Position numbers and translations under genes: made by a program. From sequence record PQ843332.1: a stretch of 64,000 bases of DNA, one strand, 5' to 3'. Source of the DNA: Escherichia phage P-GXEC-L2P5. Under the pieces are notes generated by a model. The model was not told where the DNA came from. It saw nothing but the letters and a program-made list of their open reading frames with translations, and searched no databases. Below are positions 67 through 49,893 of the stretch, in pieces; position 1 is the first letter of the stretch; every line of letters starts with the position of its first letter.

Positions 67-604
67 TGAAGCGGGACAAGCGGGACGTCCCGTTTTGTCC
101 CGCCCCTCAAAAACTGCATACTTATTTACTATTATTGCATAAACTAAAAGCGGGACAAGCGGGACGTCCCGATCTGGCACCCCTCTGAAAAGCGCATACC
201 TATTCAGTTTTACTGCATAAACCAAACGGGACAAAAAGCGGGACAAACAAGGGGCGGGACAAAGCGGGACAGCACCCCCGCCCCGCCAGTGCTGCCGCGG
301 GGTTTAGCCGATCGGGACAGGCGGGACAAAGCCCAGTCTTTCAGACTAGACGGGGGTCAATGGCCCCCCTCGCGCGGTTTTTAGCCGATCGGGACAGGCG
401 GGACAAAGCCCAGTCTTTCAGACTAGACGGGGGTCAATGGCCCCCCTCGTCTGAGACTGAATAAGGTTTGTTTTAAATTCGCTGATACAATGTTTCAGAC
501 TAGACGGGGGTCAATGGCCCCCCTCGTCTGAGACTGAATAAGGTTTGTTTTAAATTCGCTGATACAATGTCAACCGGCAACTGCATAAAAAAGGGGGCTG
601 CATA
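67..604. repeat. non-coding repeat module R1: GCGGGACA(A) arrays in direct and inverted orientation, GC-rich tract, repeated strong hairpin, TGCATAAA boxes
   Basis: At least 10 GCGGGACA-type 8-mers; near-palindrome GCGGGACAAGCGGGAC/GTCCCGTTTTGTCCCGC at 70-102; no plausible ORF; paralogous modules at 31353-31610 and 49433-49893. Confidence 0.7.
411..459 (+). terminator. strong stem-loop (cagtctttcagactagacggggg...cccccctcgtctgagactg), terminator-like; also at about 334-371 and 487-535 through tandem duplication
   Basis: Long GC-rich inverted repeat seen directly; no clean U-tract, so terminator function is inferred only. Confidence 0.35.
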
Positions 605-4899: not shown

Positions 4900-5640
4900 A
4901 TGTTAACGAAGAAGGTTAAAAGCGATATCGCCGCACACGTCGCGGCATGTCTGCCGGAAGAAGCCTGCGGCCTGGTTGTCATGGTGGGCCGCAAACAAGT
5001 TTTTATCCCGTGCGTTAACGTATTCGAAGATCCTACCGGTGCGCGCTCGCGTAAGGACGCGTTTACAATCAGTGATACGGCCTGGATGGATGCTGAGGAT
5101 ATGGGCGATGTCGTTCGCGTAGTCCACTCACACCCAGGTCAGCGCGAGTTAACCCCGTCATTGGGTGACGTCAACGGCTGCAACGGCAGCGGCGTCGTCT
5201 GGACAATTACCAATGAGTATGGCGACTTTATCGAGATCGACCCGGAAGACCCGCCACTGGTGGGTCGCCGATTTGTTCTCGGAATTACGGATTGTTATGG
5301 CCTCGTTATGGACTGGCATAAAAAGCATGGCGTAAACCTGCCAGACTTCCGCGTACCGTACAACTGGTGGGAGACAGGCGAAAACCTGTATATGGACAAT
5401 TGGTATGGAGCGGGCTTCCGGGAGTGTGCGGAGAATACGCCAGGGGCGATGGTCATCATGCAGATTAGCGCGCCAGTGCCTAACCACGCCGGAATCTACC
5501 TTCCGGGCAACCAACTACTACACCATATCTACGGCAGCCTGTCGAGCGTGATCCCCTTCCGGGCAGGATTTTTCCGCGACAATGTGGTTAAATGGGTACG
5601 TCATAAAGACTTACCGTGGGATATCACAGAATGGCAATGA
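4900..5640 (+). CDS. tail assembly protein, lambda gpK-like (JAB/MPN + NlpC/P60 domains)
   Basis: Intact 246 aa ORF; HSHPGQRELTPSLGD (JAMM-like His motif) followed by Cys/His peptidase-like region; position after gpL-like gene. Confidence 0.8.
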   Translation: MLTKKVKSDIAAHVAACLPEEACGLVVMVGRKQVFIPCVNVFEDPTGARSRKDAFTISDTAWMDAEDMGDVVRVVHSHPGQRELTPSLGDVNGCNGSGVVWTITNEYGDFIEIDPEDPPLVGRRFVLGITDCYGLVMDWHKKHGVNLPDFRVPYNWWETGENLYMDNWYGAGFRECAENTPGAMVIMQISAPVPNHAGIYLPGNQLLHHIYGSLSSVIPFRAGFFRDNVVKWVRHKDLPWDITEWQ

Positions 5641-11122: not shown

Positions 11123-12901
11123 ATGGCAGCGGGTACGCTATCCGTAACGAACAATAGCAAGGCTGTAGTAGGGGTCGGCACAACGTTTACCGCGTTTAAA
11201 GCGGGCGACTTCTTAACGCTGGTGGTAGGACAAGTCCCATACACCGTGGCAATCGCGTCCATTGAAAGCGCAACCGCGCTCACGCTGGTACTGCCGTTCG
11301 ACGGCCCAACGGCAACCGGCCTTGCGTGGGATGGCGTTAAGCGCGATACCATGTCGCTGGCAACGATGGGCGTTACCGTACAGGCCCAAAAAGCATTGCG
11401 CTTGATGATTGCAGATGAAAACAACTGGCGTGCAATCTTCGGCGATGCTGAAGAAATCACAGTCACGCTCCCGAACGGGCAAGTTATGCAGGGTATGTCG
11501 TGGGGCTACCTGTCGTCTTTGCTGAAGGAAGTAGACCCCGTTGAGATGCGCAACCTGCAACAACAAGCCGCCGCATCGGAAGCAGCCGCGCAAGGATTCC
11601 GTAACGAGGCGGAAGGCTTCAAGAACGACGCCAACACCATCAAGACGCAGACCAGCCAACTTAAGGCAGATACGCAGGCTATCAAGGACCAAACGAATCA
11701 GATCAAGACTGACACTGGCGTTATTCGTGATGAAGCCAATACCGCGAAGGAGGACGCGCAATCTGCCCGCACTGCCGCGCAAGGATTTCGCAATGAGGCT
11801 GAACAATTCGCTAATAGTGTTAACCCGGAAAACCTACTTGCGAAGGCCAACAACTTAAGTGATGTTGCGGATGTGGCTGTGGCGCGCGAAAACATTGGCG
11901 TAGACCGCCTAACGCAAAACATAACCAGCGGCGAAACACAAATCAGGACTGCGGCGAAGAATAAATGGATCTTCGTTAAGGAAAATGGCGACTGGGGCGG
12001 GTGGGATAATGCCAACAATAAAGCCATGCCGCTGCCGATTGCATTCGGTGGTACGGGGCGCGGCGATAACGTCGCCGAGTTCCGCCAATTCAAATCAAAC
12101 GGCGACACCCAAGATGGGTTAATCATTACGCAGAACGGGTCTGGATTTGGTGGTGTATGCTGGGGGGATTCCGCCAATAAAGTACGCTGGCGCATGGGGA
12201 TTAACGACGCCGCGGGTAATTTTAAGTTGCACTCATATGACGCGTCGGGCGCGTACCGCGATACCTTTATGGAGATCTCTGGATCGGGGATAAGCGGCAT
12301 GGTGTGTCATCGAGATATCATGGTCCGCCCAACAGAGACAGTTCCAGTGTTGTCTTTCGTCCTAAACAACGGAAAAGCTACCGTCCCGGCTGGTAACGTC
12401 CGCACGATGTGGGATACGGTTAACATCAATAGTAATATAATCTATAAATATTTTGAGAAGGGAGACGGCACTGGCTTCACAGTCAACTGGCCCTCATCTG
12501 GTGGTGTTATTGCCCTCCAGGGTACATCAGGAAGGGACTTTAAGAAAGATATTACCGACGCGGACGTTACAGAAGCGGTTGCACGCATTGAACAAATGCG
12601 CATGGTGCGCTACGTGTATAAGGACGATGTGCAGGAGCGCGTCCGCTTCGGCATCATTGCCGAGGAAGCAGAAGAGATTGCGCCTCAATACATCAAACAC
12701 CGTGAGGAGACGTACGATGTGGAGGTGGACCCCGAGACTAACGCCATCGTCGGGGGTAAGACGCGCGACCGTCCGTCGGTAGACGTTAACCCTATCGTGA
12801 TGGACTTGATGGGGTGCGCACAATATGCGATCGCTGAGTGTAAACGCCTGGCGGCGGAAGTGGAGGATTTGAAAGCCGAGATCGCGGCGTTGAAGAAATA
12901 A
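11123..12901 (+). CDS. tail fibre protein with C-terminal intramolecular chaperone (peptidase S74-like) domain
   Basis: Intact 592 aa ORF; coiled repeat region; C-terminal ...RFGIIAEEAEEIAPQYIK...DLKAEIAALKK resembles the auto-cleaving chaperone domain of endosialidase and L-shaped tail fibres. Confidence 0.7.
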   Translation: MAAGTLSVTNNSKAVVGVGTTFTAFKAGDFLTLVVGQVPYTVAIASIESATALTLVLPFDGPTATGLAWDGVKRDTMSLATMGVTVQAQKALRLMIADENNWRAIFGDAEEITVTLPNGQVMQGMSWGYLSSLLKEVDPVEMRNLQQQAAASEAAAQGFRNEAEGFKNDANTIKTQTSQLKADTQAIKDQTNQIKTDTGVIRDEANTAKEDAQSARTAAQGFRNEAEQFANSVNPENLLAKANNLSDVADVAVARENIGVDRLTQNITSGETQIRTAAKNKWIFVKENGDWGGWDNANNKAMPLPIAFGGTGRGDNVAEFRQFKSNGDTQDGLIITQNGSGFGGVCWGDSANKVRWRMGINDAAGNFKLHSYDASGAYRDTFMEISGSGISGMVCHRDIMVRPTETVPVLSFVLNNGKATVPAGNVRTMWDTVNINSNIIYKYFEKGDGTGFTVNWPSSGGVIALQGTSGRDFKKDITDADVTEAVARIEQMRMVRYVYKDDVQERVRFGIIAEEAEEIAPQYIKHREETYDVEVDPETNAIVGGKTRDRPSVDVNPIVMDLMGCAQYAIAECKRLAAEVEDLKAEIAALKK

Positions 12902-16685: not shown

Positions 16686-17531
16686 TTTAAATTTTCCTCG
16701 TTAACCGCTATCGCGAAGCCGCGCGGAGTGAGCGACCGGATTAATTTTGTGCGGGCTGATTTGCCTCCGAGGCGACTATACTGCTTCGAGTACCCTTTTT
16801 CAACGAAAACAGGTTTCTTCTCTGGCATACGGAAGCCGTTGCCGGTCCATAAGCAGGTCAGCTTCGGATATGAATCGCGGGCGTTGATGTATTCTTCTCT
16901 GGCATACGGAAGCCGTTGCCGGTCCATAAGCAGGTCAGCTTCGGATATGAATCGCGGGCGTTGATGTATTCCGGGAAGAGCGGGTGTACGTCATCATCCG
17001 GCAGATATCCCCCATACTCCCACGGGTCGAATGAGTGATCCGGTTTGCGCCACTGTGTGGAAAGCACACTGCGCGGATTCTCAATCATATACGGCACTTC
17101 GAAGAAGTCACCCAGGTAAGCGGCGATCTTCGCGGTGCGCACCGCCTTAAGCTGAAAGGCTGGGTCTTTTGCACGCCGAAGAAGTCACCCAGGTAAGCGG
17201 CGATCTTCGCGGTGCGCACCGCCTTAAGCTGAAAGGCTGGGTCTTTTGCACGCTTGCGCGGGAAAGCTGGCGCACCGCTCACTGCCAGATCCGTGCACGG
17301 AGGAAACGCATAGATGATATCTGGCGTACCGAAATCGCCATTCATCGCACGGTCTACAAAGTCCAGATCGATAAACTCATTGCGATAGCGGATTCCGCGA
17401 CCATAAATCCGGTAGTCAAGGTACGACCCGTGATCGGCTTCGGAGTAGTTGAAGCAATAACACTTATGCCCCATCTCGGCAGCACGCTCAATCATCAAGC
17501 CGCTGCCGTCAAACAATGACCAGATTATCAT
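16682..17531 (-). CDS. DNA (cytosine-5)-methyltransferase-like protein (frame broken by duplications near 16816-16971 and 17098-17253; start duplicated near 17456-17608)
   Basis: Motif I LFDGSG, motif IV PPCTD (Pro-Cys), ENP motif; ORFs 17085-17531, 16858-17142 and 16682-16927 are contiguous. Confidence 0.55.
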
Positions 17532-17604
17532 TTATAACACTTATGCCCCATCTCGGCAGCACGCTCAATCATCAAGCCGCTGCCGTCAAACAATGACCAG
17601 ATTA

Positions 17605-19329
17605 TCATTTGCGCGCCTTTTTAGCTTTCATGTATTCCATCAAGTCGTCCTGTATATCTCGCTTACTGTCGCGACGCTCGGCGACCAGTTCGTCTAGTGT
17701 TCCGCGCGCCTGGATAATGTAGACGAATACCGGTCGAGGGTGTCCGGCCTGCATCTGGCGAACCGGCCCGATACGTTCAACGATCTGCGAAAAGTGCTCA
17801 AAGTTCCAGGTATCGGAGAAGATTGCCAGGTGATGACCGCCGTCCTGCAAGTTAAGGCCGTGGCCCGCCGATGCCGGGTGTGCAAACATGATGGGGATCT
17901 CGCCCCTGTTCCACGCTTCCATATCCTTATTGCCCTGCTTACCCTTACCCAACGCGACGCCGTGCGGAAATTTCTTCTTAAGACGTGCCAGGTCATGCTT
18001 ATACTGATACGCAACGAGCAACGGCGCGCCGTTCAACTCCTCCACGATACTTTCCAGTGCGTCCAGCTTCGCGTCGTGAATCTTCACCCACTCGTCGGTC
18101 CGTTCGCCGTCTTCGTCCACCTTATACACAGCGCCGGAAGCAAGCTGAAGGCACTTAATTGTCTTCGATGCCGCGTTCGCCGCTTCCACTGTTCCGCTTT
18201 CCAGTTCGGCAAATAGCTCGCTTTCAAACTGGTCGTAAATCTTGCGGGCTTTCTTCGGCAGGTCCACAACAACCGGCGTATAGATTGGCTTGTCGCACCC
18301 GAAGTATTCAGCCGCGTCAACGGTGAGGGATACATCTGACAGACGTTGTTGTATCTCTTTCTCGGAGTTCTTTAGCGGAGCGTGCTGCATAGTGAAGCTG
18401 CCAGGCTTAACAGGCTTGCTAATGAACCAGCGGTCGGTGAATGCCTTATAGCTACTACCGAGGCGTTCACCACCGTCGACGAACCACGTCTGACCCCATA
18501 AGTCTTTCAAGCCGTTTGGTGCGGGTGTGCCGGTCAAGTTAATCCAGCGCTTGACGTGCTTATGTGCAATCGCCGCCAGTGCGCGTGCGCGCTTACTGCC
18601 CTGCTTGCTTCGATAGCCTTTCAGCTTAGTCGATTCATCGGCAACAACGACCGTAAAGGGCCACGCATCGCCGTAATAGTCGACCAGCCACTCAACCACA
18701 TCGTAGTTAACACAAACCACGTTAGCGTCGCTCTCAAGCGCCGCAATACGGTCCTTCTCCGGCCCGGTGCCGTCTACAACCAGCAGGGATGAGAACCGCC
18801 ATTTCTCCTGCTCCGGGGGCCATGTACCTGACGCAACACGCAGCGGGGCCAGCACCAGTACGCGGTCCTCATGATGGGACAGGACGCCAGTCTGGAACAT
18901 TTTATTCAGCGCCCACATTGTCGCGCCGGTTTTACCCGATCCCATTGTCGCCCAGATATTACATCGCTTATGCTTGAGGATGAACGCGGTTATCAACTTC
19001 TGATATTCGCGGCGTCGGAATCGTGCCATATCTTTATTCCGCCTTTTTCCAGACTTCGGTTTCACTGTTCCAGTTCCTTTTTGTAGCGTCGTAGTTGGTG
19101 GCGTGTCCGATGTGGACGCCTTTTTCCAGACTTCGGTTTCACTGTTCCAGTTCCTTTTTGTGGCGTCGTAGTTGGTGGCGTGTCCGATGTGGACACCAGT
19201 AGCCCGGAAGCTCTTAAATTTTTGCCAGCACACCGTCAACGGCAGCGGGTCATTCATGCCAGCAATAAACCACACGCGATCGCCCGGTTTGCATTCGCCC
19301 AGCTTGGTGAGTCGGTAATGTTCTTTCAT
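17605..19329 (-). CDS. superfamily 2 DNA helicase (DEAD/DEAH-like N domain + helicase C domain); N-terminal region carries duplication near 19070-19160
   Basis: Walker A ATMGSGKTGA, DEST box (VVADESTKL), helicase C motifs (HPASAGHGLNLQ); start choice from GGGAGA RBS. Confidence 0.75.
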   Translation of the reverse strand: MKEHYRLTKLGECKPGDRVWFIAGMNDPLPLTVCWQKFKSFRATGVHIGHATNYDATKRNWNSETEVWKKASTSDTPPTTTLQKGTGTVKPKSGKRRNKDMARFRRREYQKLITAFILKHKRCNIWATMGSGKTGATMWALNKMFQTGVLSHHEDRVLVLAPLRVASGTWPPEQEKWRFSSLLVVDGTGPEKDRIAALESDANVVCVNYDVVEWLVDYYGDAWPFTVVVADESTKLKGYRSKQGSKRARALAAIAHKHVKRWINLTGTPAPNGLKDLWGQTWFVDGGERLGSSYKAFTDRWFISKPVKPGSFTMQHAPLKNSEKEIQQRLSDVSLTVDAAEYFGCDKPIYTPVVVDLPKKARKIYDQFESELFAELESGTVEAANAASKTIKCLQLASGAVYKVDEDGERTDEWVKIHDAKLDALESIVEELNGAPLLVAYQYKHDLARLKKKFPHGVALGKGKQGNKDMEAWNRGEIPIMFAHPASAGHGLNLQDGGHHLAIFSDTWNFEHFSQIVERIGPVRQMQAGHPRPVFVYIIQARGTLDELVAERRDSKRDIQDDLMEYMKAKKARK

Positions 19330-19942: not shown

Positions 19943-20541
19943 TGTCGGCTTTTCCTTACGGCCGCGATGGCCGGTCCGATAAACTTCTTCATTTCGTCCG
20001 GGGTAAACCGGTCCCCGCGGGCTATGTTGCACTCTACGCAGCACGGCACGCAGTTATCTTTCGTATGGCCTACTGCGTTGTCGAGTCGGTCCGCGCCATT
20101 GTCGCCGGTGAATCCGCAGTATGCGCATGGTTGAGAAGTAAGGCGTAGCACGTCCTCGGTGGTTAGGTCGGTGGTTAGCCCCTTCCTTTCGTCCGCCTTA
20201 CGGTACTGAAAGAGCTTATAGTAAGCTCGGATCTCTGGTGTCCGGTGGTTGTACTCACGGCGGGACTTATTAGAGCACGACCTGCATTCTTTACGAATGT
20301 GTGACTGGCTTGCCCGGTTTCCGGGCCGGAAGTTTTCCGGCGTAAGCGGCTTGCGTTCCCCGCACTGACGGCACGTTACGATCTCCCCGGTATACTCTCG
20401 CCATACTTCGCGCGGCGGCGCTCCTCTTTCCTTATCACGTCTCTCTTTCTTATACGCCGCCATGCATTTGGCACACCACGACTGACCCTTGTTGAAAGCG
20501 GACTCATCTTTATCCGTATTACAACGCCCACAATGTTTCAT
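19939..20541 (-). CDS. HNH endonuclease with N-terminal zinc-ribbon repeats
   Basis: Repeated CxxC pairs; C-terminal CAYCG...DRLDN...H...CCVECN resembles HNH core; ATGA overlap with VRR-NUC gene. Confidence 0.5.
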   Translation of the reverse strand: MKHCGRCNTDKDESAFNKGQSWCAKCMAAYKKERRDKERGAPPREVWREYTGEIVTCRQCGERKPLTPENFRPGNRASQSHIRKECRSCSNKSRREYNHRTPEIRAYYKLFQYRKADERKGLTTDLTTEDVLRLTSQPCAYCGFTGDNGADRLDNAVGHTKDNCVPCCVECNIARGDRFTPDEMKKFIGPAIAAVRKSRQ

Positions 20542-20607
20542 ATACCCCCCGAAAAAGAAAACGCCAGACAATATTGCCTGACGTTTCCGCTAAAAGCAAC
20601 ATTTCCG

Positions 20608-23600
20608 CTACTTGCGGTATCGATACATACAATCGCCCTCTGCGGCAAGTGGGAAGCCTTTCGCCCAAATCGGCAGGTCGCACATCAGCGCGCAAAGTTC
20701 CTCGGTCGTGTAGTCGTCAGTGTCCGGCACTTCGGTGATCAATTCATCGTGCACTGACAGGACGATTTCATAGCCCGCAGCTTCAACGCCAGGCATGGAC
20801 CACGCGAGAATATCGCGACACAACGCTTGCACGATGTTCTCCGTAAGTTTGCCGCCGTAGGTGTACTGGAATCCCCACTGGCGCGTCGTCTGATTCTCGC
20901 CCTGATATTTGATGCGGGTACTGGTGCGCTTCTTGCCGGTGTCTTCGTCGATCTCGGTCGTGACAGACAGTGCGATGCCGGGGTAGCTCATGATGCGCCC
21001 CGACGGCAACTCAATTTTTAACCACCACCCCGCGGCGTTCGGGTCGTCGCGCTCCTCGTCAAAGGTTGGGTCGTGCTTCGCCTTCGTACGGACAATCTTG
21101 AGCGCTTTTCTACCGTCCGGGCGAACGTTCGCACCAGCCCAGTATGCTTTGCCCGGATTGCGGATTGCACACAACACCGCGTCCTCAAGCTCGGCCCAAA
21201 AGGCTACCGTCTTCGGGTGAGCCTCACGCCACATACGTTTGATCGCGTCACAAGTAAGCCATACGTTTTTCGGCAGTATGTAAGTCGGGCGCTCGTCCTT
21301 CTTGCCCGGCTTCGGTGGGCGTTTCGCTTCGTTAATGCGGGCGTACTCATAACCGCGCTTCGCCGCCGCCCAAATGTGATCCGGGAACGTGCCTTTCATC
21401 ACGTCCGCCATAGTGTAAAGGTCGAGTCCCAGGTTTTTAGCGAACTGCAAGAACGCCGCGACGCCGCCACCATAGCCCAGGCCAAGCTCGCAGTTATGCG
21501 CCACCAGAAAACCAGACTTAGACGCAATAAGGAACCGGTTTCCGTCTTCCACATCAATCAGGTCGTAAACCGGCTCGCAATAGGTTAACTTCCCGTTCCA
21601 GTTCAGCAATGCGGGTAAGGGCTTCATCGTACTTTCTCTGAAGCTCGGGCACGCTGCGCCGGTTACGGCAGTTTTCCGAACGGCTGACAAACCGAAGGTT
21701 TCCAGGCTCATAGTTGCCGTCTGTATCGATCCGGTCCATTTCGAAGTCGGGATTATCCCAGCCGTCCAGCGTTTGAACGTAGAGAAGAAACGACCTTTTA
21801 TCTCTCTTCCATTCGTCACATACGGCAATCCCACGACTGCCGTAGTTTTTATACCCTTTGGCGCGGGGGTTTGTCGTTCGTGATATTGCCGCTGACAGCC
21901 GGTTGAGCAGCCGCGTTCTGTGCGCATCGTCTGGCATTGCGTCATCGTAGCAAAAATACTGTTTACGATACCGCTTTGTCGCTTCAATTGCGCAGAGGTT
22001 GCATTGGGATGTTTTACCCCTTCGGACGTTGTCATACCCGACGCGTCCTGGCATCGCTCCGCAATCACATTGGGCCAGCAGTTGTCTGTGCCCCTGTCGT
22101 TTTGGTAATTCGCGCAGGATAACCAGGCGTCCATACCTCTCGCCAGGGCGCGGGCCATCGTGCACCTGTCTGAAACGAGTTGCCTTGCCTCCTTCCATGA
22201 ATGCGTCAAGATTTTGTGGTCTTCTGTCATCAAGACCCCGTCCACGTCTATCACTGGTTTCCACCCCATAAGGTGCGCGCCTTGTGTACTCACCCATTTT
22301 TCGCCGTTCCATACTTTATCCGTTGATGTTACGGCCATAATATCCTTGAACCCGCCATTGGTCAATACTTGGGTATGGCGGTGCAAGCAAGCCTTACCGA
22401 TCTGGCGTAAGTCCTTGCGGTTAGCTTTAATGTAATCCGGGTCCAGGCCGAACATTTTACCGGCAGTCTCGCAATAAATATCGCGACCGGCCTTAAACAC
22501 CATTAACGCGGTTTTCTCGCCAGCGACCCAGGCAAGGCCGCGCCCTTCCACGTTGGAGTAGTCCGCGACGACAAACTTCTTGCCCTTAGCCGGAATGATG
22601 CACCCGCGAACGGTCGAGGCGGTTAGCTTCGATATGTCATACGCCCAGTGCGCTGTCCCGCGTAACAGGGAGTTGATGCCGTTGGTGAGCATGTGCGACC
22701 GAACCCAAAACGAGACGTCGCTTTCACCCTCGCGGCGTTTAATCTTCCCTTCGTGGTCGTCGCTGTACTCGCCACGCGCCAGGTTTTGAGGTTGAAAGCC
22801 TTTACCGGCCCAGCGTAGCGTGCGCTTTGCCCCACCATACTGAAGACACCCACGGCGGCGACCATCTGCGGATAAGCCGTTAACTAGCGGATTGTACTTA
22901 GTCGATGCCGTTGATGACGCTCCGAGGCGCATTTCTATAAGCGCTTTGCCTTCGTCGGGGAAGTCCGGGTCTTCAAGCAGGTCGTTAAGTGTGGATTTCT
23001 GCGCGTTGTGGATTGTGAACGCCGGGGCGATATCACGCAGGATTGGCAGGAAGTCATTGCCTGTCAGTTTACCACCAAATCGCTCCCAGGCTTCTTCCTT
23101 CAATTCTTCCTTATGCGCCTGCACCGCTTTGATCGCGGCGTTCGCCAGGTCAACGTCGACGTAGAAGCCGCGGTCGTTAATCAACTGGTCGATGAGCAGG
23201 ATTTCATCTTCCTTAGGCGAGTTTCCCCAGTCCGGTATGCGCCAGTAGACTTCACGCATTGCGATAATATCCAGCGCGGCATAGCGCAGAAATTTGGCCC
23301 ATTCTTCCGGGTGAGTCTCGCGAGTGTAGCGGCGGATTTTGTAGGTCTTAGGGGTAGGCTTACAGAATCGGTTAATCAGCGCCTTGCCTGCCTTATCCTT
23401 CGCGTGCTCTGCGTCAACGCCCAGAACCTGGCACTGCATATCGAGGCTACCGGGCAGCGCGTGGCGAAAGGCCATAATCATAGTGTCTTCGATCTGGCTT
23501 ACCGGCAGGTCAATACCCCACTTCTCGCGGATAACCAGGCGGTCAAACAGGAGGCCGTTAGCCATCACTATTTTAGCCTTCTTGCGGGATACCCGGCGGA

Positions 23601-28516: not shown

Positions 28517-28846
28517 ATGAATATCAACGACGCAATCGAAATGCTAACGAAGACTGTCTGCAGTGAGACTAGCCGGTCCTGGGCGTATACCGATGCCGTG
28601 GGGGCGGTGCTATTTGAAATCGAACGTCTGCGACTTACCGAAAAAGAATTGCGCGCCAGGCTGGAATTACTCAACGGTACGGCAGCCAGCAAGCTGCAAA
28701 AGCACAATGAAGAAATGGAAGAATACAAAAAACAGGTTATCCGTCTACGTGAGGAAGGTAAATCCTGGGCTATGATCGCCGAGCTAACCGGAATCAACCA
28801 GAGCACCGTGCGCTCCTGGGTACGCAATAATAAAACTTCGAAGTAA
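28517..28846 (+). CDS. HTH DNA-binding protein, putative transcriptional regulator
   Basis: 109 aa; C-terminal GKSWAMIAELTGINQSTVRSWVRNN helix-turn-helix; coiled-coil middle. Confidence 0.5.
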   Translation: MNINDAIEMLTKTVCSETSRSWAYTDAVGAVLFEIERLRLTEKELRARLELLNGTAASKLQKHNEEMEEYKKQVIRLREEGKSWAMIAELTGINQSTVRSWVRNNKTSK

Positions 28847-28856
28847 GGCAACGGCA

Positions 28857-31352
28857 ATGAGCTTAATTAAATTCGCTGTAACACGACCCGCTAAAAAAGG
28901 CGAAAAAGCCAGGGCGGAAAACTTCCAGATGACCACCGATGAATTTTTCGAATTTATCAATGATGCGAAAGAAATCGCGAAAAAGCCAGGGCGGAAAACT
29001 TCCAGATGACCACCGATGAATTTTTCGAATTTATCAATGACGCGAAAGAAATATCATCGGTGCATATCAACAAGACCGAGGATAAAGCGGAGTATGCGCG
29101 CCGCAAGCGTAAGGCCGATGGCATCGTAGCGTATACCAGTGACGGCTTACGCCGCAAGACCAGCGCGGTGGACCGCTCGATCCTGTTCTTTGATATTGAC
29201 CGCACCGACACTCGCACCTTACGCCGCTGCCGTAAGGCGTTCATTGACGCGGGTCTGGAACACGTATTCCACACAACCACCGGCGACCGCCACCCGCTTA
29301 AAGGCGGCACGCGTTGCGCTCGCTTCCTGGTACTCACTGATAAGCCGGTCCCGGCTGAAGACCTGGGCCGTGTCCAGTATGCGCTATTACATCAACTTGG
29401 TCTGTCGGATGTGGACTTCGACGATTGCACGAAAGACACAAACCGCCTGATGTACCTGCCGCACCAGCAATCGGTTATTAAGTGCCACTACGGCAAACGT
29501 GCCCGCGTCCGTCGTCTGCTTCGCCTGGCGGATACGCTTGGCGTGGAGAAGGAAGAAGTACGCCGCGAGCTTACCCAGGGCGACGACGCAGTGGCGGACG
29601 GGATTCTGGACTGGTGCTTCCAGGCAGGATTCGAGGAGTTATCTTCCGGTCGCGGTTATGAAGTGCCGTGCCCGAACGAACATCTGCACAGCGGCGAAGG
29701 GTCGACGGCTATCATGGTCAAGGATGGCGAGATCCGTTTCAAGTGTATGCACACCGGCAACGAGTGTTGCTCTGAGCTGAACAGACACCAGCACCTGGCG
29801 CTACGTCTTATCGGGATACCGGACCACCTGAACGTCGAGCCGCACAACATGTCACGTAAGCAAATCGCCGCCATCCTCCCAGGGCTGGACGACGAGGAAG
29901 TCGAATCCTTATATGAACATATTGTTGATGCGGTTGGCGACGGCGAAGAATACGGCGTGTGCACCGATGCGGATCTGGATAACGAGCCGGTCGCACTGTT
30001 GTTGATGCAGTTGGCGACGGCGAAGAATACGGCGTGTGCACCGATGCGGATCTGGATAACGAGCCGGTCGCACTATTCAGTAAGCACGACCCGATCATCG
30101 AAGGCCTGGTCAACTTCAAATCGACCTGGTACATGGCTGGCGAGTCGAACATCGGTAAATCGTTCTACGTGCTGGGCCAAATGGGCGCGGTTGCCGCGGG
30201 GATTCCGTTCGGCGGTGCGAAGGTCGTCCAGTCTCATTGCTTCTATTTCGACGCGGAAGGTGGCGAAGCCTCCAACCAGCGTAAGGAAGCATTGCAGATC
30301 AAATATGAGCACGACCTGGACAAGCTGCACATTATTGACCTGCAATCACGCGGCTGGGATATCACCAGCAAATCAGGCTTGCGTGAAGTTATCAGCTTCA
30401 TCAACCGCACCGCTAACGGCGAGCCGGTTGGCCTGGTGGCGTTCGACTCACTCAACCAGACTGTTGCGCTGCGGTCCGCCGATGCAAAACCGTTCGACGA
30501 GAACAACGCCAGCGATATGGGCGAAGTGGTCAAAGCGCTGAAGGCCATTGCGGAAAATACAGGCGGCAGTGCGGGCGTCATCCACCACCCGGCGAAAGGT
30601 GCAAACGGCCGCAGATCTCCCCGTGGGTCCGGCGCGCTGCATGGTGCTGTCGATTCTGCGTTCTTCCTGGAGCAACCGGACGACAACCAGCCAGGTCAAT
30701 TGAACCTGTATCACGAAAAGGCACGTAACGGCATCAAGCAAGCGCCGCGCGGCTTCGTCCTGCTCAAGTGCAAGGTTAAGGTGGATCTCCGCAAGTCCGA
30801 AGCGTTCGAAGCCCACCAGTCCACCAGCACCGGGCCAGACTTCGGCGATGTGGTTGCCGGTTGGGACGTCAAACCAATTGCGTCCACCCCGCGCGACGAG
30901 ACTCTATACCTCGTACCGGTAGCCCTGGCACCGTTCGCGATAGAACAGGCGAAGGCGGCGGGCAAAGCCGCAGTTAAGGAAGAGAACACCGCCGGTCCGC
31001 GCAACGAAAAAGAGAAAGTGCTTTATGCGGCCCTGGAAAAACTGATGGCAGATAACCCTGACCATACTGGATTCAGTAAATCGGCAATTGTACGCCAGGC
31101 GGGACTCGCTAAGGGTGGCACTTCGACGAAGGCAATAGACGATATGGTCGAGCGCGGCGTGATTGGTTTCTATACAGATCCGCACACCGGGGCCATATAT
31201 GGGTCGTCGAATTTAGTCATCAAATCTGATATCCCCTGATTGGTTTCTATACAGACCCGCACACCGGGGCCATATATGGGTCGTCGAATTTAGTCATCAA
31301 ATCGGAGATCCCCATAACGCTTTCGGCGACCGATGACGACCTGAAAGACTAA
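28857..31352 (+). CDS. primase-helicase: primase-polymerase-like N domain, zinc-binding region, RecA-like C domain (frame broken by duplications near 28910-29050, 29940-30070 and 31170-31290)
   Basis: ILFFDIDR and VFHTTTGDRH primase-like motifs; Cys/His cluster; Walker A GESNIGKS and Walker B VAFDSLN. Confidence 0.7.
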
Positions 31353-31610
31353 ATCCTATTTTGAGTGTTTTTAGCTGGTCGCATTGGTTGCCGTGCAGTA
31401 TAAATATAGTGAATAGTTATGCAATAAAACTGCATAAAGTAAGCGGGACAAAAAGCGGGACAAACTTGGGGCGGGACAAAGCGGGACAGCACCCCCGTCC
31501 CGCCCCGGATGACGCGGCCTGGAGAGGAGCGGGACAGGCGGGACAACTCCCAGTCTTTCAGACTAGACGGGGGTCAGCGGCCCCCCTCGTCTGAGACTGC
31601 ATAAAATCCG
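31353..31610. repeat. non-coding repeat module R2, paralogue of R1
   Basis: aagcgggacaaaaagcgggacaaacttggggcgggacaaagcgggacagcacccccgtcccgcc is nearly identical to R1 226-290; same hairpin at about 31553-31607. Confidence 0.7.
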
Positions 31611-31753
31611 GGATTGCAAAATACACGGCAGCACATTGGAAATCGCGGTCGTCGATGAACTGGGCAACCAATGCGAGTTGCAGAATGTGGTGTGAAAAAT
31701 GCAGTTTGCAGTCACAGCTGATAGCGATCAACTTTTTCATGCGCATGATTAAT

Positions 31754-31794
31754 ATTGGTTGCATTCATGCCAGCACCCTGCTAGATTGGTTGCA
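31754..31794 (+). promoter_or_regulatory. two copies of ATTGGTTGCA upstream of gene 31816
   Basis: ATTGGTTGCA at 31754-31763 and AGATTGGTTGCACACCAACA at 31783-31802; identical extended 17-mer upstream of minus-strand gene start 43131. Confidence 0.45.
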
Positions 31795-31815
31795 CACCAA
31801 CATGAGGGCTGAACA

Positions 31816-32142
31816 ATGAAAGCGATTATCTGGAATTACGCAATGGCTATGGCGAAGGCACAAGAAGCGGCGGAGTTCGCCGGGGAGGGGGCGGAAGCAG
31901 TAGAGAGACTATCGGCAGCGTGGTCCGTTGTTCGCGTCACGCAGCAGGCCATCGCCTGTATGCTTGAGCGCCGCTTCGACACGATGGCGGAGATCCAGCC
32001 GTTGGCGAACGCTATCCAGGACTACGCGCTTGCATTTGCCCGTGAACGCCTGGCGTATCGCTTCGGGATCGGAGAGACGGCAGTGACAAACGTTGCCCGG
32101 ATTAAAGCCCAGCGTGAGCTATTCGCCCAGCTTGCGAAATAA
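31816..32142 (+). CDS. hypothetical protein (early region)
   Basis: 108 aa intact ORF directly downstream of motif pair. Confidence 0.4.
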   Translation: MKAIIWNYAMAMAKAQEAAEFAGEGAEAVERLSAAWSVVRVTQQAIACMLERRFDTMAEIQPLANAIQDYALAFARERLAYRFGIGETAVTNVARIKAQRELFAQLAK

Positions 32143-32151
32143 GAGGCCAAA

Positions 32152-32421
32152 ATGACCCGTAGACGCGCAAAACAGCTTTCGTGGCATATCCCCCTGCATT
32201 GCATACGAATATGGGCTAAGAATGCGAATGCGGGGGACTCTGTGTACTGGTGCTATCGCGACGACGTTAAGCCGTTGACGCAGACTCGCTACTTGCACCA
32301 GTTCGCCGCGCAACATGATTTCTATGTGCGGACCTCCTTGCAACCAATGGGGATCCGTATTACATTACGCCGGAAGCCCGCAGTCGAGCGGGTAGGCAAA
32401 CACTGGAGACTGAGCAAATGA
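32152..32421 (+). CDS. hypothetical protein
   Basis: 89 aa intact ORF, tightly spaced. Confidence 0.35.
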   Translation: MTRRRAKQLSWHIPLHCIRIWAKNANAGDSVYWCYRDDVKPLTQTRYLHQFAAQHDFYVRTSLQPMGIRITLRRKPAVERVGKHWRLSK

Positions 32422-32960
32422 AATTACTATTCCGCCGAAAATCAGATGGCCGCATTCTTAAGCCAATACAGACCCTTGACACCCATGTGCGACTTCACCA
32501 CGCCGCAAGCGATCGTGTCTGGTGGGCGAATAAGGCAAAGCTGCCGGAGAAATACGAAATCCTCACGCATGATATTGAGCGCGGCGATGTGCTGCGTGAT
32601 ATTCGCGACGGGCAATTGTGGGTCGTTGAGCACACCAGCCAGCACGGCTTGCGTATGCAAACCCGCAAGGGCGGAGTAGTGGGTAACATACAGAGGGTTA
32701 TGACGTACTTCGGGCTAATCCACTACGAGCGCGTGGGGCGCAAATACTGCCTGCGCAACCGCCAGCCTCATGAGCGCGCAACCTACGACTCCCACCAGGT
32801 GCAAGCGAAGATGGGCCGCGCCGTACACCAAATCGTCAATCGCTTTGATGCCGTGACGAACGCACAACGCCATGCGCAGGAATACGGTGTTGGATTCATC
32901 CAGGTGGAACGAGACGGCAGCATGAAAGCCATCGACCCGCGCTCGGTGATTCTGAAATGA
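32418..32960 (+). CDS. hypothetical protein
   Basis: 180 aa intact ORF; ATGA overlap with upstream gene. Confidence 0.4.
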   Translation: MKLLFRRKSDGRILKPIQTLDTHVRLHHAASDRVWWANKAKLPEKYEILTHDIERGDVLRDIRDGQLWVVEHTSQHGLRMQTRKGGVVGNIQRVMTYFGLIHYERVGRKYCLRNRQPHERATYDSHQVQAKMGRAVHQIVNRFDAVTNAQRHAQEYGVGFIQVERDGSMKAIDPRSVILK

Positions 32961-33167
32961 GTGCGACGATCCGTGATATGCTTCAGCACAACCGCTTTGA
33001 GATAGGCGGTCGGGTGTTTCGCAATTACTTCGTGGCGCGTGCATGGGCGCGCCATATTGGCAAACCGGAAGGGGCAATTCGATGCTATACGTCTTCGCGG
33101 TAGTATGTGGCGGTAGTCTGGCGGCCCTGGTGCTGTTGGCGTCGGTTATTAGTCTGGTTAAATACCT

Positions 33168-33467
33168 ATGGGGCAGATTATGATTCATGATGTGATTTAT
33201 TGGTTTGGTATGGCCAGCATGTTATGCCTGGTTACGGGAGTGCTGGGCGCAATATGGGTATTCCTGGTATGGCCTGCGGTGGAAGCTGCCAGCATTACCC
33301 GGATGACATTCGAGATCTACAAGCGCCGTGGAATAACGGAGCACCCGACCAGGCTTCGGATGTGGTGGCTGTGGTATCGGGATATGATAGGCGGTCGAAC
33401 ATTCGAAGCCGTCCGCTCATCCGGGTGGGAGTGGAAAGGCGTCGGCAAGTTGTCCGTTTTCGATTAA
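33168..33467 (+). CDS. membrane protein, hypothetical (C-terminal region duplicated near 33420-33560)
   Basis: Hydrophobic N-terminal segment MASMLCLVTGVLGAIWVFLVW. Confidence 0.35.
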   Translation: MGQIMIHDVIYWFGMASMLCLVTGVLGAIWVFLVWPAVEAASITRMTFEIYKRRGITEHPTRLRMWWLWYRDMIGGRTFEAVRSSGWEWKGVGKLSVFD

Positions 33468-33566
33468 TTATGCAAGCGTGATATAGTCCCAGTGAGCTCG
33501 GGTGGGAGTGGAAAGGCGTCGGCAAGTGGTCCGTTTTCGATTAATTATGCAAGCGTGATATAGTCC

Positions 33567-38788: not shown

Positions 38789-40691
38789 ATGACCGTTAAC
38801 GTTGACAACCAGCACCCGCTCTATGCGCGCATAGCGCCAGAGTGGAAAATGATCCGTGACTGCGTAGCAGGGGAGCGCGCCGTGAAGGCGTGCGGGCCAT
38901 TGTACCTGCCACACCCCGCAAGCGGGGACACCACCGACCCGAAATCACGGGCACGCTATAAGGCATATAAGCAACGCGCTGTCTTCCTGAACGCCACCGC
39001 CCGCACACTGAATGCGCTGTTAGGTGTCGCCTTCGCCAAACCGGTGAGTATGGACCTTTCCGGGGCAATGGCTGACCTGATTGATGACGTAGACGGCAGC
39101 GGGATGCCACTGGCGCAACTACTGCGCGGCGCTATGTCGGAAGTGCTGCAATCAGGCCGTGCCGGTTTTATGGTGGACTACGACCGCCAGGCGCATTTTG
39201 ACGAACTGGGTAACGTAGTGCCGCAGACCGCCGCTGAAATGGCGGCACACCGCCCGCTTATCCGCCTGTATACGGCTGAACAGATCATCAACTGGCGGCG
39301 CAGACCGCCGCTGAAATGGCAGCACACCGCCCGCTTATCCGCCTGTATACGGCTGAACAGATCATCAACTGGCGGCAGACCCACGGGGTAGACACGCTAA
39401 TCGTGCTGAAGGAGACGGACGAAATCAGCACCGAAGACCCGGACGACTTCGCAAACCACGAAGTTACGATCTGGACCGAGTGCTGAAGGAGACGGACGAA
39501 ATCAGCACCGAAGACCCGGACGACTTCGCAAACCACGAAGTAACGATCTGGACCGAGCTTCGCATGATTGCAGGTGCGGCACATGCCCGCCGCTGGTTTT
39601 ACAACGCGGACACGTCCGAGGTGCAAATGGACTTGCCGCGGGGATTCACCCGCACCGATCTTGTACCGCTGGTGGATGCCTCCGGTAATGCGCTTACTCA
39701 ACTGCCATTTTGCTGGTGTGGTGCGGTGGACAACAACGCGACACCGGACGCCGCACCGCTGGCGGATATTGCGTCCATCAACATTAAGCACTACAACGCC
39801 GAGTGGACAACAACGCGACGCCGGACGCCGCACCGCTGGCGGATATTGCGTCCATCAACATTAAGCACTACAACGCCGAAGCAGACGTCGCCGAGATTGC
39901 GCACATTGTGGGCCAACCTACACTCATTGCGACCGGTCTGACCCAATCATGGGCCGATAAAAACCTGAAGGGAGGCATCGCGCTCGGTGCAACTAAGGGC
40001 GTTATCTTGGGCCAGAACATGGACGCTAAACTGCTTCAAGCTGAGGAGAGAAACCTGTCAGTTGCGCTGTGTGAGCGACGCGAATTGCAAATGGCTAAAC
40101 TGGGCGCGGCCCTGGTCGAGAAGGGGGAAACCTGTCAGTTGCGCTGTGTGAGCGACGCGAGTTGCAAATGGCTAAACTGGGCGCGGCCCTGGTCGAGAAG
40201 GGGACCGCACCTAAGACGGCAACTGAAGCGGCCTACGATGCGCAGACTGATAACAGTATCCTGTCACTGATTGCCGGTAACGTTGAGAAGGCTTTCAACC
40301 GTGCGCTGCAGATCGTCAAGCTGTTCACGGGGGACACCGCAGATCAACGTGTAACGCTGAATAAGTTCTACACCGAGATCACGGTGGATGCACAGCTTAT
40401 GACCGCAATGATGGCGGGTGTGCAGACCGGTACGGTCCGTCTGGCGGACTTTATCAAGTGGATGATGCACAGCTTATGACCGCGATGATGGCGGGTGTGC
40501 AGACCGGTACGGTCCGTCTGGCGGACTTTATCAAGTGGATGATGGCCCAGGGCGTTATTGATGACTCGCAAACCGTCGAGCAGGTGGAAGACGAACTGCG
40601 AAATCAGAATCCATTGCCTCAAATGTCCCCGGATGCGGTAGAATCTACCGAAGAAGACCAGGACAAGGTAGCGGACAATGGCGAAGACAAT
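38789..40691 (+). CDS. portal protein (frame broken by five duplications between about 39260 and 40500)
   Basis: About 560 aa after removing duplicates; position directly after terminase large subunit; acidic C-terminus. Confidence 0.55.
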
Positions 40692-42012
40692 TAATCAATA
40701 TATGGCGGATCGAATGATCCGCCGTCACATCTTCACCCAGCGCCTTAGCAATGACCAGGCGCGAAGGGTGCTGTCCATGTGGGAGAAGTTCCGGCCCACA
40801 TTACTGGGAAAGCTGACCGAGTTGCTTGATGGCAAATCGTCAATGAATAACAGGGCACTTTCCACCCTGCTAACGCAAATCGACAAGACCGTTAAATCAG
40901 AATTGCGCACCGAGTTTAAGGCGTTGGCTGAAAGCCTTCAGGAGTTCGCCGACACGGAGGCTGATTATCTCACCGACACATTAACGGCAGCGATCCAGCC
41001 GGTGGTGAAAGCCTTCAGGAGTTTGCCGACACGGAGGCTGATTATCTCACCGACACATTAACGGCAGCGATCCAGCCGGTGGTCGCTGTACCTGCGGTCG
41101 AGGTGGTTGGCGTAGTGACCGGTGCGCAGATCGCAGCGACGGCAATGAAAAACCCGTTTCAGGGCAATACCCTGATGCAATGGCCCGATTCACTTTCAGA
41201 ATGGACCAGGACGCAGATCGGCAATCAGGTGCGCGCGGGATTCATCCAGGGTAAGCCGACTTTGGAAATTATAGCGGACGTGAGGCGCGCGCTCGGCGGT
41301 CGTAGTGCGCAAGCTCTCTCAAGCGTTGTTAAGTCCGCAGTCAACCACTATGCGGCGACCGCCCGCGAACTAATGGTAAAAGCAAATGACGATATTCTCG
41401 AAGGTCGCCAACAGCAGTCAACCACTATGCGGCGACCGCCCGCGAACTAATGGTAAAAGCAAATGACGATATTCTCGAAGGTCGCCAATGGTTATCTACA
41501 TTGGACACGCATACTTCTCCCATGTGCCAGCTACGCGATCGCCTGTTTTATCCGGTTGATGTTACTCCCGACACCAAAGGAAAGCGCGGCGGGAAAATGG
41601 TGGCTGGGTCACAATATGGCGCTGGTCCGGGCAAGTTGCATTATTGCTGCCGGTCTACGGAGACGTGGAAGGTTAAAGGCATGGAAGATTGGCCCAGTGG
41701 TAAGCGGGCAAGTTGCATTATTGTTGCCGGTCTACGGAGACGTGGAAGGTTAAAGGCATGGAAGATTGGCCCAGTGGTAAGCGTCCGGCACTGAAGGCTG
41801 ACGCTGGTCGATTGCTGAGTGAGCAGGTCGACGCGCAGACTGATTTCTTCTCATGGGTGCAGCGCCAGCCGCGCCATATCCTGGAAGAATTATACGGAGT
41901 GCAACGCGCCGACCAGATTATGCGCGGCGTGAAAGTGCCGAAGATGTTCACCGATTCAGGCGAACTAATGACTATCGCACAGCTTAAAAACCGGGGGTTA
42001 TGGCGTGATTAA
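40678..42012 (+). CDS. head morphogenesis protein, Mu F / SPP1 gp7-like (frame broken by duplications near 40960-41080, 41340-41460 and 41640-41760)
   Basis: WLSTLDTHTSPMCQLRDRLFY signature region; position after portal. Confidence 0.6.
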
Positions 42013-49432: not shown

Positions 49433-49893
49433 GGAGCGGGACAGGCGGGACGTCCCGTTTTGTCCCGCCACCACTAAACCGCATATATACTCACTTTCAT
49501 TGCATAAATTAAAAGCGGGACAGGGGTGCTGTCCCGCTTTGTCCCGCCCCCAAAATGTGAATATCTATTCGATTTTCGTGCATAAAACAAACGGGACAAA
49601 AAGCGGGACAGAATTGGGCGGGACAAAGCGGGACAGCACCCCTGTCCCCGCCAGTGCTGCCGCGGGTTTTAGCCGATCGGGACAGGCGGGACAAAGCCCA
49701 GTCTTTCAGACTAGACGGGGGGTCTGTCACCCCCCTCGTCTGAGACTGAATAAGGTTTGTTTTAAATTCGCTGATACAATGACCGACGGCAACTGCATAA
49801 AAAGGGCCCCCCTCGTCTGAGACTGAATAAGGTTTGTTTTAAATTCGCTGATACAATGACCGACGGCAACTGCATAAAAAGGGGGACTGCATA
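49433..49893. repeat. non-coding repeat module R3, second-copy counterpart of R1
   Basis: Same GCGGGACA arrays, inverted pair GCGGGACAGGGGTGCTGTCCCGC, hairpin and TGCATAAA boxes; ORFs called here are spurious. Confidence 0.7.

Follow-up and report, generated by a model that had tools for sequence, protein, structure and literature searches.

P4 alpha joins a TOPRIM primase to an SF3 helicase, and P4 has a second cis site, crr, which carries the repeats of the origin and is needed in cis. The C-terminal winged helix of P4 alpha is described as binding the origin repeats; RSF1010 oriV is described as containing iterons for RepC, with RepA as the helicase and two stem-loops, ssiA and ssiB, that are primed by RepB′ (PMC4234260). 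The same source describes the pRN1 ORF904 replicon, in which a stem-loop origin, shown experimentally, lies immediately 3′ of the gene for a primase-helicase-winged-helix protein, and names Bordetella phage BIP-1 as a predicted equivalent (PMC4234260). According to the sections of the SPP1 literature that we drew on, SPP1 has two similarly organized origins made of direct repeats together with a DUE rich in AT, with oriL inside the gene for the origin-binding protein and oriR among late genes; oriR is proposed to stall forks and thus trigger the switch to concatemer (sigma) synthesis (PMC6316719, PMC3485210).

Among coliphages and Salmonella phages, Dhillonvirus and Guernseyvirinae are common groups that are used in work on therapy and defence systems, and we found no mapped replication origin for either in the literature. 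In the available part of a recent preprint, mutants of the Dhillonvirus HK578 that escape OLD defence are reported to map to the helicase-primase gp46 and the gp45-gp46 promoter; OLD activation is attributed to ssDNA hairpins at replication origins, and the HK578 origin is not located there (bioRxiv 10.64898/2026.07.10.737580). Here we describe a repeat and hairpin module, R2, directly 3′ of the helicase-primase gene. Its sequence, the comparison with relatives, a structure model and the analogy to the systems above suggest that R2 is probably an iteron-type origin bound by the C-terminal domain of the helicase-primase, with an adjacent priming or melting hairpin.

As a description, the repeats are not new. 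The record of Sodalis phage SO-1 (NC_013600) already flags two repeat regions, “region A” and “region B”, whose repeats it calls direct, inverted and palindromic, and notes that the two are alike. As far as the parts of the record available to us go, these are the same two loci as here, with “region A” corresponding to the second locus, R1, and the annotation is descriptive only, with no tie to the helicase-primase C-terminal domain or to relatives. Our literature search found no account of the repeat and hairpin element.

Assembly state of the window

The window, the whole stretch analysed, is 64,000 nucleotides of Escherichia phage P-GXEC-L2P5 (PQ843332.1). The region matches Dhillonvirus phages (158 phage records), and positions 31237-31850 are 100% identical to Shigella phage EP23. 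In a blastn comparison of the whole window with EP23, collinear segments were interrupted by 70 junctions at which the EP23 coordinate steps back by about 77 nt. On this comparison, the window was assembled as a mosaic from related strains and contains near-duplications of 77 nt that are artefacts. It circles a genome of about 44-45 kb more than once, with a repeat period of 49.3-50.7 kb that is inflated by the artefacts.

This state of the assembly accounts for several features of the window. The helicase-primase frame is broken because of the 77-nt artefacts, including one junction (31236/31237) through which the gene's end is present twice. Hairpins at 296, 373 and 450 in R1 are a single hairpin, triplicated in the same way. 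The first-pass annotation had counted a third module, R3 (49556-49737). Because the window laps the genome more than once, R3 is the R1 locus again, seen twice, and there are only two loci per genome:

49433-49752, + strand: “R3”, the assembly's second pass over R1, from another strain and without an internal 77-nt artefact; the next junction is at about 49806

In EP23, R2 lies at 39086-39548 and R1 at about 12050-12446. The module occurs at 325 places in the 158 GenBank Dhillonvirus records, nearly every one of which has two. R2 itself lies within a clean segment, 31237-33498, that is 99.7% identical to EP23 38970-41231. The concern that R2 could be an assembly duplication of R1 is answered by the presence of both copies in these ~158 independent records and by their different flanks, which are the tail chaperone and tape-measure genes for R1 and the helicase-primase and p48 genes for R2.

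Anatomy of R2

R2 and its surroundings contain the following features.

31350-31352, + strand: stop codon of the helicase-primase gene, from the sequence
31384-31391, + strand: TTGGTTGC box, of a second motif class tied to promoters and intergenic regions
31399-31442, + strand: AT-rich stretch with 9 G/C in 44 nt (20% GC), a candidate DNA-unwinding element
31410-31423, + strand: conserved box TGAATAGTTATGCA, inside the AT-rich stretch
31430-31437, + strand: CTGCATAA, inside the AT-rich stretch
31443-31488, + strand: iteron cluster, four direct copies of GCGGGACA at 31443, 31455, 31471 and 31481 (spacings 12, 16 and 10)
31497-31504, − strand: inverted iteron copy GTCCCGCC, from the sequence and the RNA fold
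31529-31545, + strand: iteron doublet GCGGGACA-G-GCGGGACA
31551-31599, + strand: imperfect hairpin of 49 nt with a G/C-rich apex, CAGTCTTTCAGACTAGACGGGGG-TCAGCGG-CCCCCCTCGTCTGAGACTG (DNA fold −12.7 kcal/mol, z = −3.85)
31598-31632, + strand: conserved 3′ flank, with CTGCATAA (31598-31605) and ACGGCAGC (31625-31632)
31664-31793, + strand: promoter-like region, with an inverted TTGGTTGC at 31664-31671 and TTGGTTGC at 31755-31762 and 31786-31793
31816-32142, + strand: next gene, homologue of EP23 p48, 108 aa (PHROG 9839, unknown function)

The module had been proposed to span 31353-31610. It is real, but the functional block begins at about 31399, with its elements from the AT-rich box to the hairpin falling within 31399-31605, and 31353-31398 is a spacer past the stop codon with one TTGGTTGC box. 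A hairpin does follow the core as was noted, at 31551-31599 rather than at about 31553-31607.

The motif GCGGGACA is present in 27 copies in the window, against 3.3 expected, and none of 100 shuffles reached 27. EP23 has 17 copies, of which about 14 are within the two modules, against about 1.7 expected under a third-order Markov model. The R2 copies, at 31443, 31455, 31471, 31481, 31529 and 31538, are all on the + strand. R2 thus has clustered direct copies of a short motif, far over chance, in a non-coding stretch, as an iteron origin does, and next to them an AT-rich stretch whose 20% GC compares with 49-58% in windows across the genome. The inverted copy is part of a 10-bp inverted repeat formed by GGGGCGGGAC (31468-31477) and GTCCCGCCCC (31497-31506).

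In 27 copies of the module (R1 or R2) drawn from 14 genomes, there is essentially no variation in the iterons and hairpin stems, and the spacers and loop vary with 1-nt indels; the block is therefore non-coding and constrained at its motifs. No protein family supports the open reading frames that overlap it, among them the minus-strand EP23p47. The second motif class, TTGGTTGC, occurs 17 times in EP23 against about 1.5 expected, chiefly as intergenic pairs.

Two further candidates were dropped. The likeness of TTATGCA to a DnaA box extends to 7-8 of 9 positions, with a mismatch at a key position. ACGGCAGC was considered as a strictly single-stranded motif, and counts of ACGGCADC on both strands gave only a partial bias, explained in large part by the orientation of the genes. 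GC skew in EP23 likewise mirrors gene orientation and gave no origin signal.

R1, the copy in the tail operon

The other locus lies 27 kb away from the helicase-primase gene.

68-470, + strand: R1, the paralogue of R2, located after the tail-chaperone frameshift ORF (stop 64-66) and before the tape-measure gene (ATG 606)

The first-pass annotation had described a core of roughly 60 bp in R2 as nearly identical to R1, and this is borne out by 60 identical positions in a 70-column alignment against window 223-290. Beyond the core, pairwise alignment gives 83-86% identity over about 180 nt: a repeat search within the window pairs 191-372 with 31408-31589 at 83% over 182 nt, and window 31430-31604 matches R1 of EP23 at 85.9% over 177 nt. 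The likeness spans the AT-rich box and the complex hairpin and so is not confined to low-complexity GC runs. The core repeats of R1 have the same spacings as those of R2 (12, 15-16, 10, 48-49 and 9 nt). Upstream of this core, R1 has two more units, each with a pair of iterons, an inverted copy and an AT-rich box.

Orthologous identity (0.89 between R1 copies and 0.87 between R2 copies) exceeds paralogous identity, so the R1/R2 duplication is older than the sampled radiation. Within a genome, R1 and R2 are nonetheless more alike than between genomes (0.832 versus 0.809; permutation p = 0.002), and copies in the same genome share variants, namely a doublet variant, the sequence of the loop and a GGGACGTCCC palindrome, the last in the divergent genome m003101. 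These shared variants would fit gene conversion from time to time, or selection imposed on both copies by a single reader protein.

R2 had been labelled the second copy, and here the comparison reverses the order. The module is single-copy in relatives outside Dhillonvirus, which carry only R2 (one cluster in the whole phiEap-2 genome; 33 places in 32 Salmonella and Enterobacter records); R2 is therefore ancestral and R1 a Dhillonvirus-specific duplication. A protein search with the tail chaperone found Dhillonvirus R1 loci only and recovered no distant lineages.

Conservation of the module and of its hairpin

Relatives of the helicase-primase (37-49% identity) have the same block straight after the stop codon, and in every lineage it lies directly 3′ of the replication gene. 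Their loci came from IMG/VR, metagenomes and GenBank Guernseyvirinae (phiEap-2, Pantoea AH01, St162, Shemara, SE1 and Hafnia TS33). The usual order is one or more GAATAGTTATGCA boxes, three or four direct repeats with an inverted copy, a spacer, two repeats, the hairpin, TTATGCA..ACGGCARC and a promoter. The inverted copy after the direct repeats was found in every lineage examined; the doublet just 5′ of the hairpin, and TTATGCA/TGCATAA with ACGGCARC 3′ of it, were found in most. The conserved box is kept in most lineages of Dhillonvirus and Guernseyvirinae type and is degenerate or absent in TS33-like and L193-like phages, in which some module elements are degenerate or missing. When viral contigs were scanned with the 14-mer TGAATAGTTATGCA, the matches listed were mostly due to chance; among them, requiring a nearby CACGGCA gave at least seven loci, one by chance, with phiEap-2 as the sole new lineage.

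A long imperfect hairpin with a G/C-rich apex follows the repeat doublet in nine lineages, and the stems are unrelated in sequence (for example, AGTCT../AGACGGGGG.. in EP23, CATCTA../TGGTGGTGG.. in L029 and ATCCTC../TGGGGTG.. in L030). When the nine hairpins were aligned with MAFFT and passed to RNAalifold, four apical pairs only were recovered. Since automatic alignment left the stems out of register, each lineage was folded separately and compared with shuffles. All nine hairpins beat dinucleotide shuffles, with DNA z values of −2.5 to −4.4. A structure that is kept beside a replication gene while its sequence changes is the pattern of a stem-loop origin.

Repeat units co-vary with the C-terminal domain of the helicase-primase

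The genes upstream of R2 are as follows.

28517-28846, + strand: small HTH protein gene, homologue of EP23 p45, 109 aa, first in the p45-p46 operon (Pfam HTH_23, HTH_28 and Sigma70_r4_2; PHROG 9366)
28857-31352, + strand: replicative helicase-primase gene, homologue of EP23 p46, by blastn against EP23
30982-31352, + strand: coding region for the C-terminal winged-helix domain and an acidic tail (DDDLKD), holding the artefactual duplication 31160-31236 / 31237-31313

The helicase-primase matches Pfam AAA_25 at residues 357-531 and PHROG 3228, “replicative helicase-primase” (E = 0). In Pfam, neither its C-terminal domain nor its N-terminal 360 aa matches a family, and a PDB sequence search gave no match. 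The last ~90 residues, about 665-754 in EP23, are modelled as a winged helix. The models were built on a 5-sequence alignment, a homologue search having given 7 proteins, and in the first of them, which covered 180 aa, the part beyond the C-terminal domain was poor. Foldseek matches to the domain were weak (best E-value 0.06), and the winged-helix fold is generic.

About 25 loci were examined. Across these, the architecture of the module is kept and the repeat unit falls into eight classes, each with its own motif at the start of helix 3 of the C-terminal domain.

GCGGGACA: helix-3 start motif KGG-TSTK
CGGACAA: helix-3 start motif GGGN[SK]RRR
TCCGACA(G): helix-3 start motif DGGRRRPA
AGGGAT[AG]A: helix-3 start motif AGG[GN]RRPA
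GGGGGAGA: helix-3 start motif KGGDRY
GGGGATGA: helix-3 start motif KGGGRY
GGGACA/AGGACA: helix-3 start motif PGGRRRPA
TTGCGAGT: helix-3 start motif GGQKFTSGNYKK

There was no discordant pair of iteron and C-terminal domain among the ~25 loci. Identity over the C-terminal domain divided by identity over the core gives about 1 in close pairs with the same iteron (St162/Shemara/SE1; EP23/m003101), 0.69-0.77 in two more distant pairs of the same class and 0.45-0.91 in pairs with different iterons. A cassette swap separates Pantoea phage AH01 from the metagenomic L029, in which the helicase-primase cores are 98% identical and the C-terminal domains 48%. At the DNA level, the two are 90.8% similar up to L029 nt 4490, and similarity is back at 5036 (98.9%). 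Judging from these sequences, only the last ~96 codons and the iteron/hairpin block were exchanged.

Because the C-terminal domain adjoins the iterons, linkage alone could explain part of the co-variation through co-inheritance. We nevertheless argue for a functional tie, because the distant R1 retains the same iteron and no discordant pairs were found. The upstream HTH protein was also considered as the reader of the iterons and rejected. It is identical at 71 of 72 positions between AH01 and L029 and near-identical between phiEap-2 and L034, phages with unlike iterons, and is therefore probably not the specificity determinant. The positional counterpart of p45 in relatives of Guernseyvirinae type is a different, XRE-type HTH protein.

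The proposed origin and how it compares with known replicons

We infer binding, melting and priming at R2, and any role of R1, as follows. The C-terminal winged helix of the helicase-primase would recognize the iterons, and the protein would assemble there and melt the AT-rich and hairpin region. The extruded hairpin would be an entry or priming site for the protein's own primase, after which the T7-like DNA polymerase and Gp2.5-like SSB, both encoded near R2, would take over. R1 may be read by the same protein and would then be either another origin or a fork barrier with bound protein that aids the concatemer switch, as proposed for SPP1 oriR. An alternative candidate for the origin is found upstream of p45, where the divergent promoter region is AT-rich (GC 0.485). 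The OLD-escaper data from HK578 point the same way as the origin reading.

By analogy, this reading combines the logic of P4 alpha, RSF1010 and pRN1. As in P4 alpha, one polypeptide would hold primase, helicase and a predicted repeat-binding C-terminal winged helix, and there is a second cis site with the same repeats. Unlike P4 alpha, the helicase here is AAA_25/RepA-like and the N-terminal ~360 aa lack a Pfam match; we found no sequence similarity to P4 alpha, and the P4 domain was absent among the fold matches listed. As in RSF1010, where the stem-loops turn into priming signals once single-stranded, iterons adjoin a stem-loop and the helicase is of RepA/AAA_25 type, whereas RSF1010 uses three separate proteins and two opposed ssi sites in place of one fused protein and one hairpin per module. 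As in pRN1, the operon consists of a small DNA-binding protein followed by a (here predicted) primase-helicase-winged-helix protein. The pRN1 replicon, however, has an SF3 helicase, no iterons and a stem-loop of ~100 nt, compared with 49 nt here. With its AAA_25 helicase and an N-terminal 360 aa without a Pfam match, the protein is not of the ORF904 type (prim-pol plus SF3), and the R2 system would be pRN1-like in its working without being a member of that type.

The arrangement of the two loci resembles that of SPP1. R2 lies at the helicase-primase gene and R1 among tail genes, so that, as known here from sequence, one of two origin-like loci is at the predicted initiator gene and the other interrupts late structural genes. 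As in SPP1, the phage encodes an exonuclease (EP23 p40), a Gp2.5-like annealing SSB (p38) and a RusA-like Holliday-junction resolvase (p08), a toolkit that could restart a stalled fork. The differences lie in the proteins and the hairpin. As far as the available descriptions go, SPP1 has a separate origin binder (gp38), helicase loader and DnaB-type helicase, with oriL inside gene 38, whereas here the predicted binder is fused and the site is 3′ of the gene; those portions mention no hairpin like that of R2 (PMC6316719, PMC3485210).

Alternative explanations

We consider it unlikely that the module is a transcription boundary cassette, in which the hairpin would end or attenuate the upstream transcript and the repeats would be operator or activator sites of a phage regulator for a downstream promoter (of the late/lysis operon past R2, and of the tape-measure and distal tail genes past R1). 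R1 and R2 do lie at boundaries of gene blocks, on the transcribed strand. A moderately T-rich TTATTCATT follows the hairpin of Guernseyvirinae, but the Dhillonvirus hairpin has no T-run and is followed by GCATAAAATCC; no terminator-like site was found on the + strand in 31237-31900 or in EP23 11700-12500, so the hairpin does not have the form of a Rho-independent terminator. Promoter-like sequences can be read past R2 (TTGCAT at 31759-31764, 17 nt, TAGATT at 31782-31787) and past R1 (TGaTACAAT), and relatives have near-consensus promoters 60-100 nt past the hairpin (e.g., TTGACA-N17-TATTGT). The scan for consensus promoters, however, found none on the + strand in R1 or R2, the pair past R2 did not pass it in strict form, and promoters are already marked by the separate motif class TTGGTTGC (ATGTTGGCTGC in relatives). 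Moreover, it is the C-terminal domain of the helicase-primase, not the neighbouring HTH regulator, that changes together with the repeat unit.

The first-pass annotation had argued for a repeated cis element or trans-acting factor, not a chance repeat, and had listed an origin, a pac-like signal and a terminator-promoter cassette as options. The comparative evidence supports its general claim, and among the options we favour the iteron origin over the cassette or pac because the repeat unit co-varies with the winged-helix domain while the architecture stays constant. A regulatory role at the same site may coexist with an origin; the module lies where a transcription boundary is expected.

Less probable still is a structured RNA in the transcript, such as a processing or stability site, a put/nut-like antitermination element or a protein-sponge RNA of repeated GGGACA. 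Such a role would suit a structure that is kept while stem sequences differ, the orientation of all elements with transcription and the RNA fold of 31425-31615 (z = −3.05). Rfam 15, however, gave 0 matches at the gathering threshold in the whole window, and the repeat class tracks the winged-helix domain of a replication protein. In phiEap-2 and AH01, moreover, the inverted copy forms an almost perfect palindrome around a centre of 2 nt (GGACAAcgTTGTCC), which makes an RNA role less likely because it suits a dimer site on double-stranded DNA and is too tight for an RNA loop.

It is very improbable that the module signals packaging or a genome end, as a pac or cos accessory site. The hint in its favour, that some Dhillonvirus records end about 115 nt past the R2 hairpin (WFI, Zar3M) or at the hairpin (HH3), is weak, and most records begin, by convention, at the small terminase gene. 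About 5 kb separate R2 from the terminase genes, R1 lies within the tail operon, and the partner in co-variation is the helicase-primase, not the terminase. Finally, an assembly artefact or a functionless selfish miniature mobile element is scarcely credible: for all the artefactual duplications and strain mosaic of the window, R2 sits in a clean segment and is syntenic over the whole subfamily, and both loci are at fixed positions in the independent genomes, so that the artefact reading is refuted for R2 and R1 and applies to nothing but R3 and the surplus copies of the hairpin at 296-541.

Implications for Dhillonvirus and Guernseyvirinae

The locus is best explained as the replication origin of a phage replicon whose type is known, with a second copy that is specific to Dhillonvirus, not as a new kind of system. 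Tentatively, and with more doubt than attaches to the origin itself, a wider picture can be drawn. Dhillonvirus and Guernseyvirinae may use a self-loading helicase-primase whose replicon specificity is set by a swappable cassette of winged helix, iterons and hairpin, exchanged as a unit so that co-infecting relatives would not cross-activate each other's origins. In Dhillonvirus, a copy of the DNA half of this cassette would have entered the tail operon, where it would drive the theta-to-concatemer switch as a second origin or a programmed fork barrier. The hairpins extruded at both sites might then be the ssDNA signal sensed by OLD-type, and perhaps Lamassu-type, defences in HK578-like phages.

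The origin assignment is specific and testable, with a precise candidate site and a named candidate binder. It would account for the odd non-coding insert of ~400 nt in the middle of the Dhillonvirus tail operon, and it would give a concrete DNA target for the OLD-escaper observation in HK578. For the study of winged-helix recognition, nature provides a data set in the eight C-terminal domains and their matching iterons.

Assembly of the window and record ends

Compared with the Dhillonvirus Shigella phage EP23 (L002), collinearity across the whole window is broken at 70 junctions by a backward jump of ~77 nt. The tandem 77-nt duplications at these junctions are near-identical, not exact, and disrupt many ORFs, the helicase-primase gene among them. 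Examples in the window are:
31160-31236 / 31237-31313, duplicated pair
296/373/450, one R1 hairpin in triplicate
1223/1300, duplicated pair
3541/3618, duplicated pair
The window combines strains in a mosaic and makes more than one turn round the genome; the duplications look like an artefact of a k=77 assembly graph.

Two longer stretches lack an EP23 counterpart, each mapping to a single EP23 coordinate:
16703-17617, ~915 nt, at EP23 26939
19944-20608, ~665 nt, at EP23 29111
At similar places, SSL-2009a and SO-1, both sister phages, have genes for an HNH endonuclease or a methyltransferase; the SO-1 DNA polymerase gene contains an intron. Both stretches are probably mobile insertions.

Record ends were compared near R2, the iteron and hairpin module 3' of the helicase-primase gene, using MK373791 (L005), NC_073065 (L004) and PP759150 (L003). 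Two of these Dhillonvirus records stop ~115 nt 3' of the R2 hairpin (about window 31717-31720), their ends lying no more than 3 nt apart, and one stops directly after the hairpin. These ends may reflect a common convention or an assembly break; the parts of the literature covered by our search gave no physical genome ends for these phages.

Coding sequences around the modules

Some GenBank records draw small "hypothetical protein" genes over the hairpin and iterons:
31558-31764, minus strand, p47 of EP23 (EP23 39291-39497)
Shemara (L179) 2011-2304, gp58-gp59
A search for family matches to these genes returned none, and sister-genome annotations have no counterparts of them. Small genes annotated across the hairpin and iterons are probably spurious.

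At its extreme C-terminus the helicase-primase itself carries a tail of acidic character, DDDLKD, EDDLEN or DVDLAD (window ~31335-31349, EP23 39068-39082), that is conserved in all relatives regardless of iteron class, the lineage-specific repeat unit of the module. The tail is reminiscent of the acidic tails through which T7 gp4 and gp2.5 make contact with DNA polymerase, and the phages with this tail have genes for a Gp2.5-like SSB and for a polymerase of the T7-like type.

R1, the paralogous module, lies upstream of the tape-measure gene, whose start-codon region carries repeats:
580-608, tape-measure start-codon region
49785-49800, tape-measure start-codon region
Two copies of CTGCATAA stand immediately upstream of the start codon, the second overlapping the ATG (CTGCATAATG); ~35 nt upstream there is TGATACAAT, which resembles an extended -10. 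Together, the -10-like element and the repeat pair suggest that the tape-measure gene may be transcribed from a promoter of its own, 3' of R1.

Repeated motifs

ACGGCA[GAT]C is ~8-10-fold over-represented, with 61 copies genome-wide in EP23 and 47 in phiEap-2 (L175). ACGGCAGC alone occurs 21 times on the plus and 3 times on the minus strand of EP23, against ~1.4 expected per strand; the motif's strand bias largely, not fully, tracks gene orientation. One copy (window 31625-31632) is kept right 3' of the module hairpin in most lineages.

The second motif, TTGGTTGC, has 17 copies in the whole EP23 genome, against ~1.5 expected, mostly as intergenic pairs overlapping -35-like TTGCAT/TTGCAC:
31384-31391, 31755-31762 and 31786-31793, window copies
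31664-31671, minus strand, window copy
6462, 6476, 22006, 24913/24925, 26579/26596, 33255/33271, 36283 and others, EP23 copies
Guernseyvirinae relatives use ATGTTGGCTGC in the same role in place of TTGGTTGC, and in a distant lineage (L033) the repeat 3' of helicase-primase is GCAACCAAC. TTGGTTGC may be the site for a phage regulator, a candidate reader perhaps being p45, the small HTH protein encoded upstream of helicase-primase.
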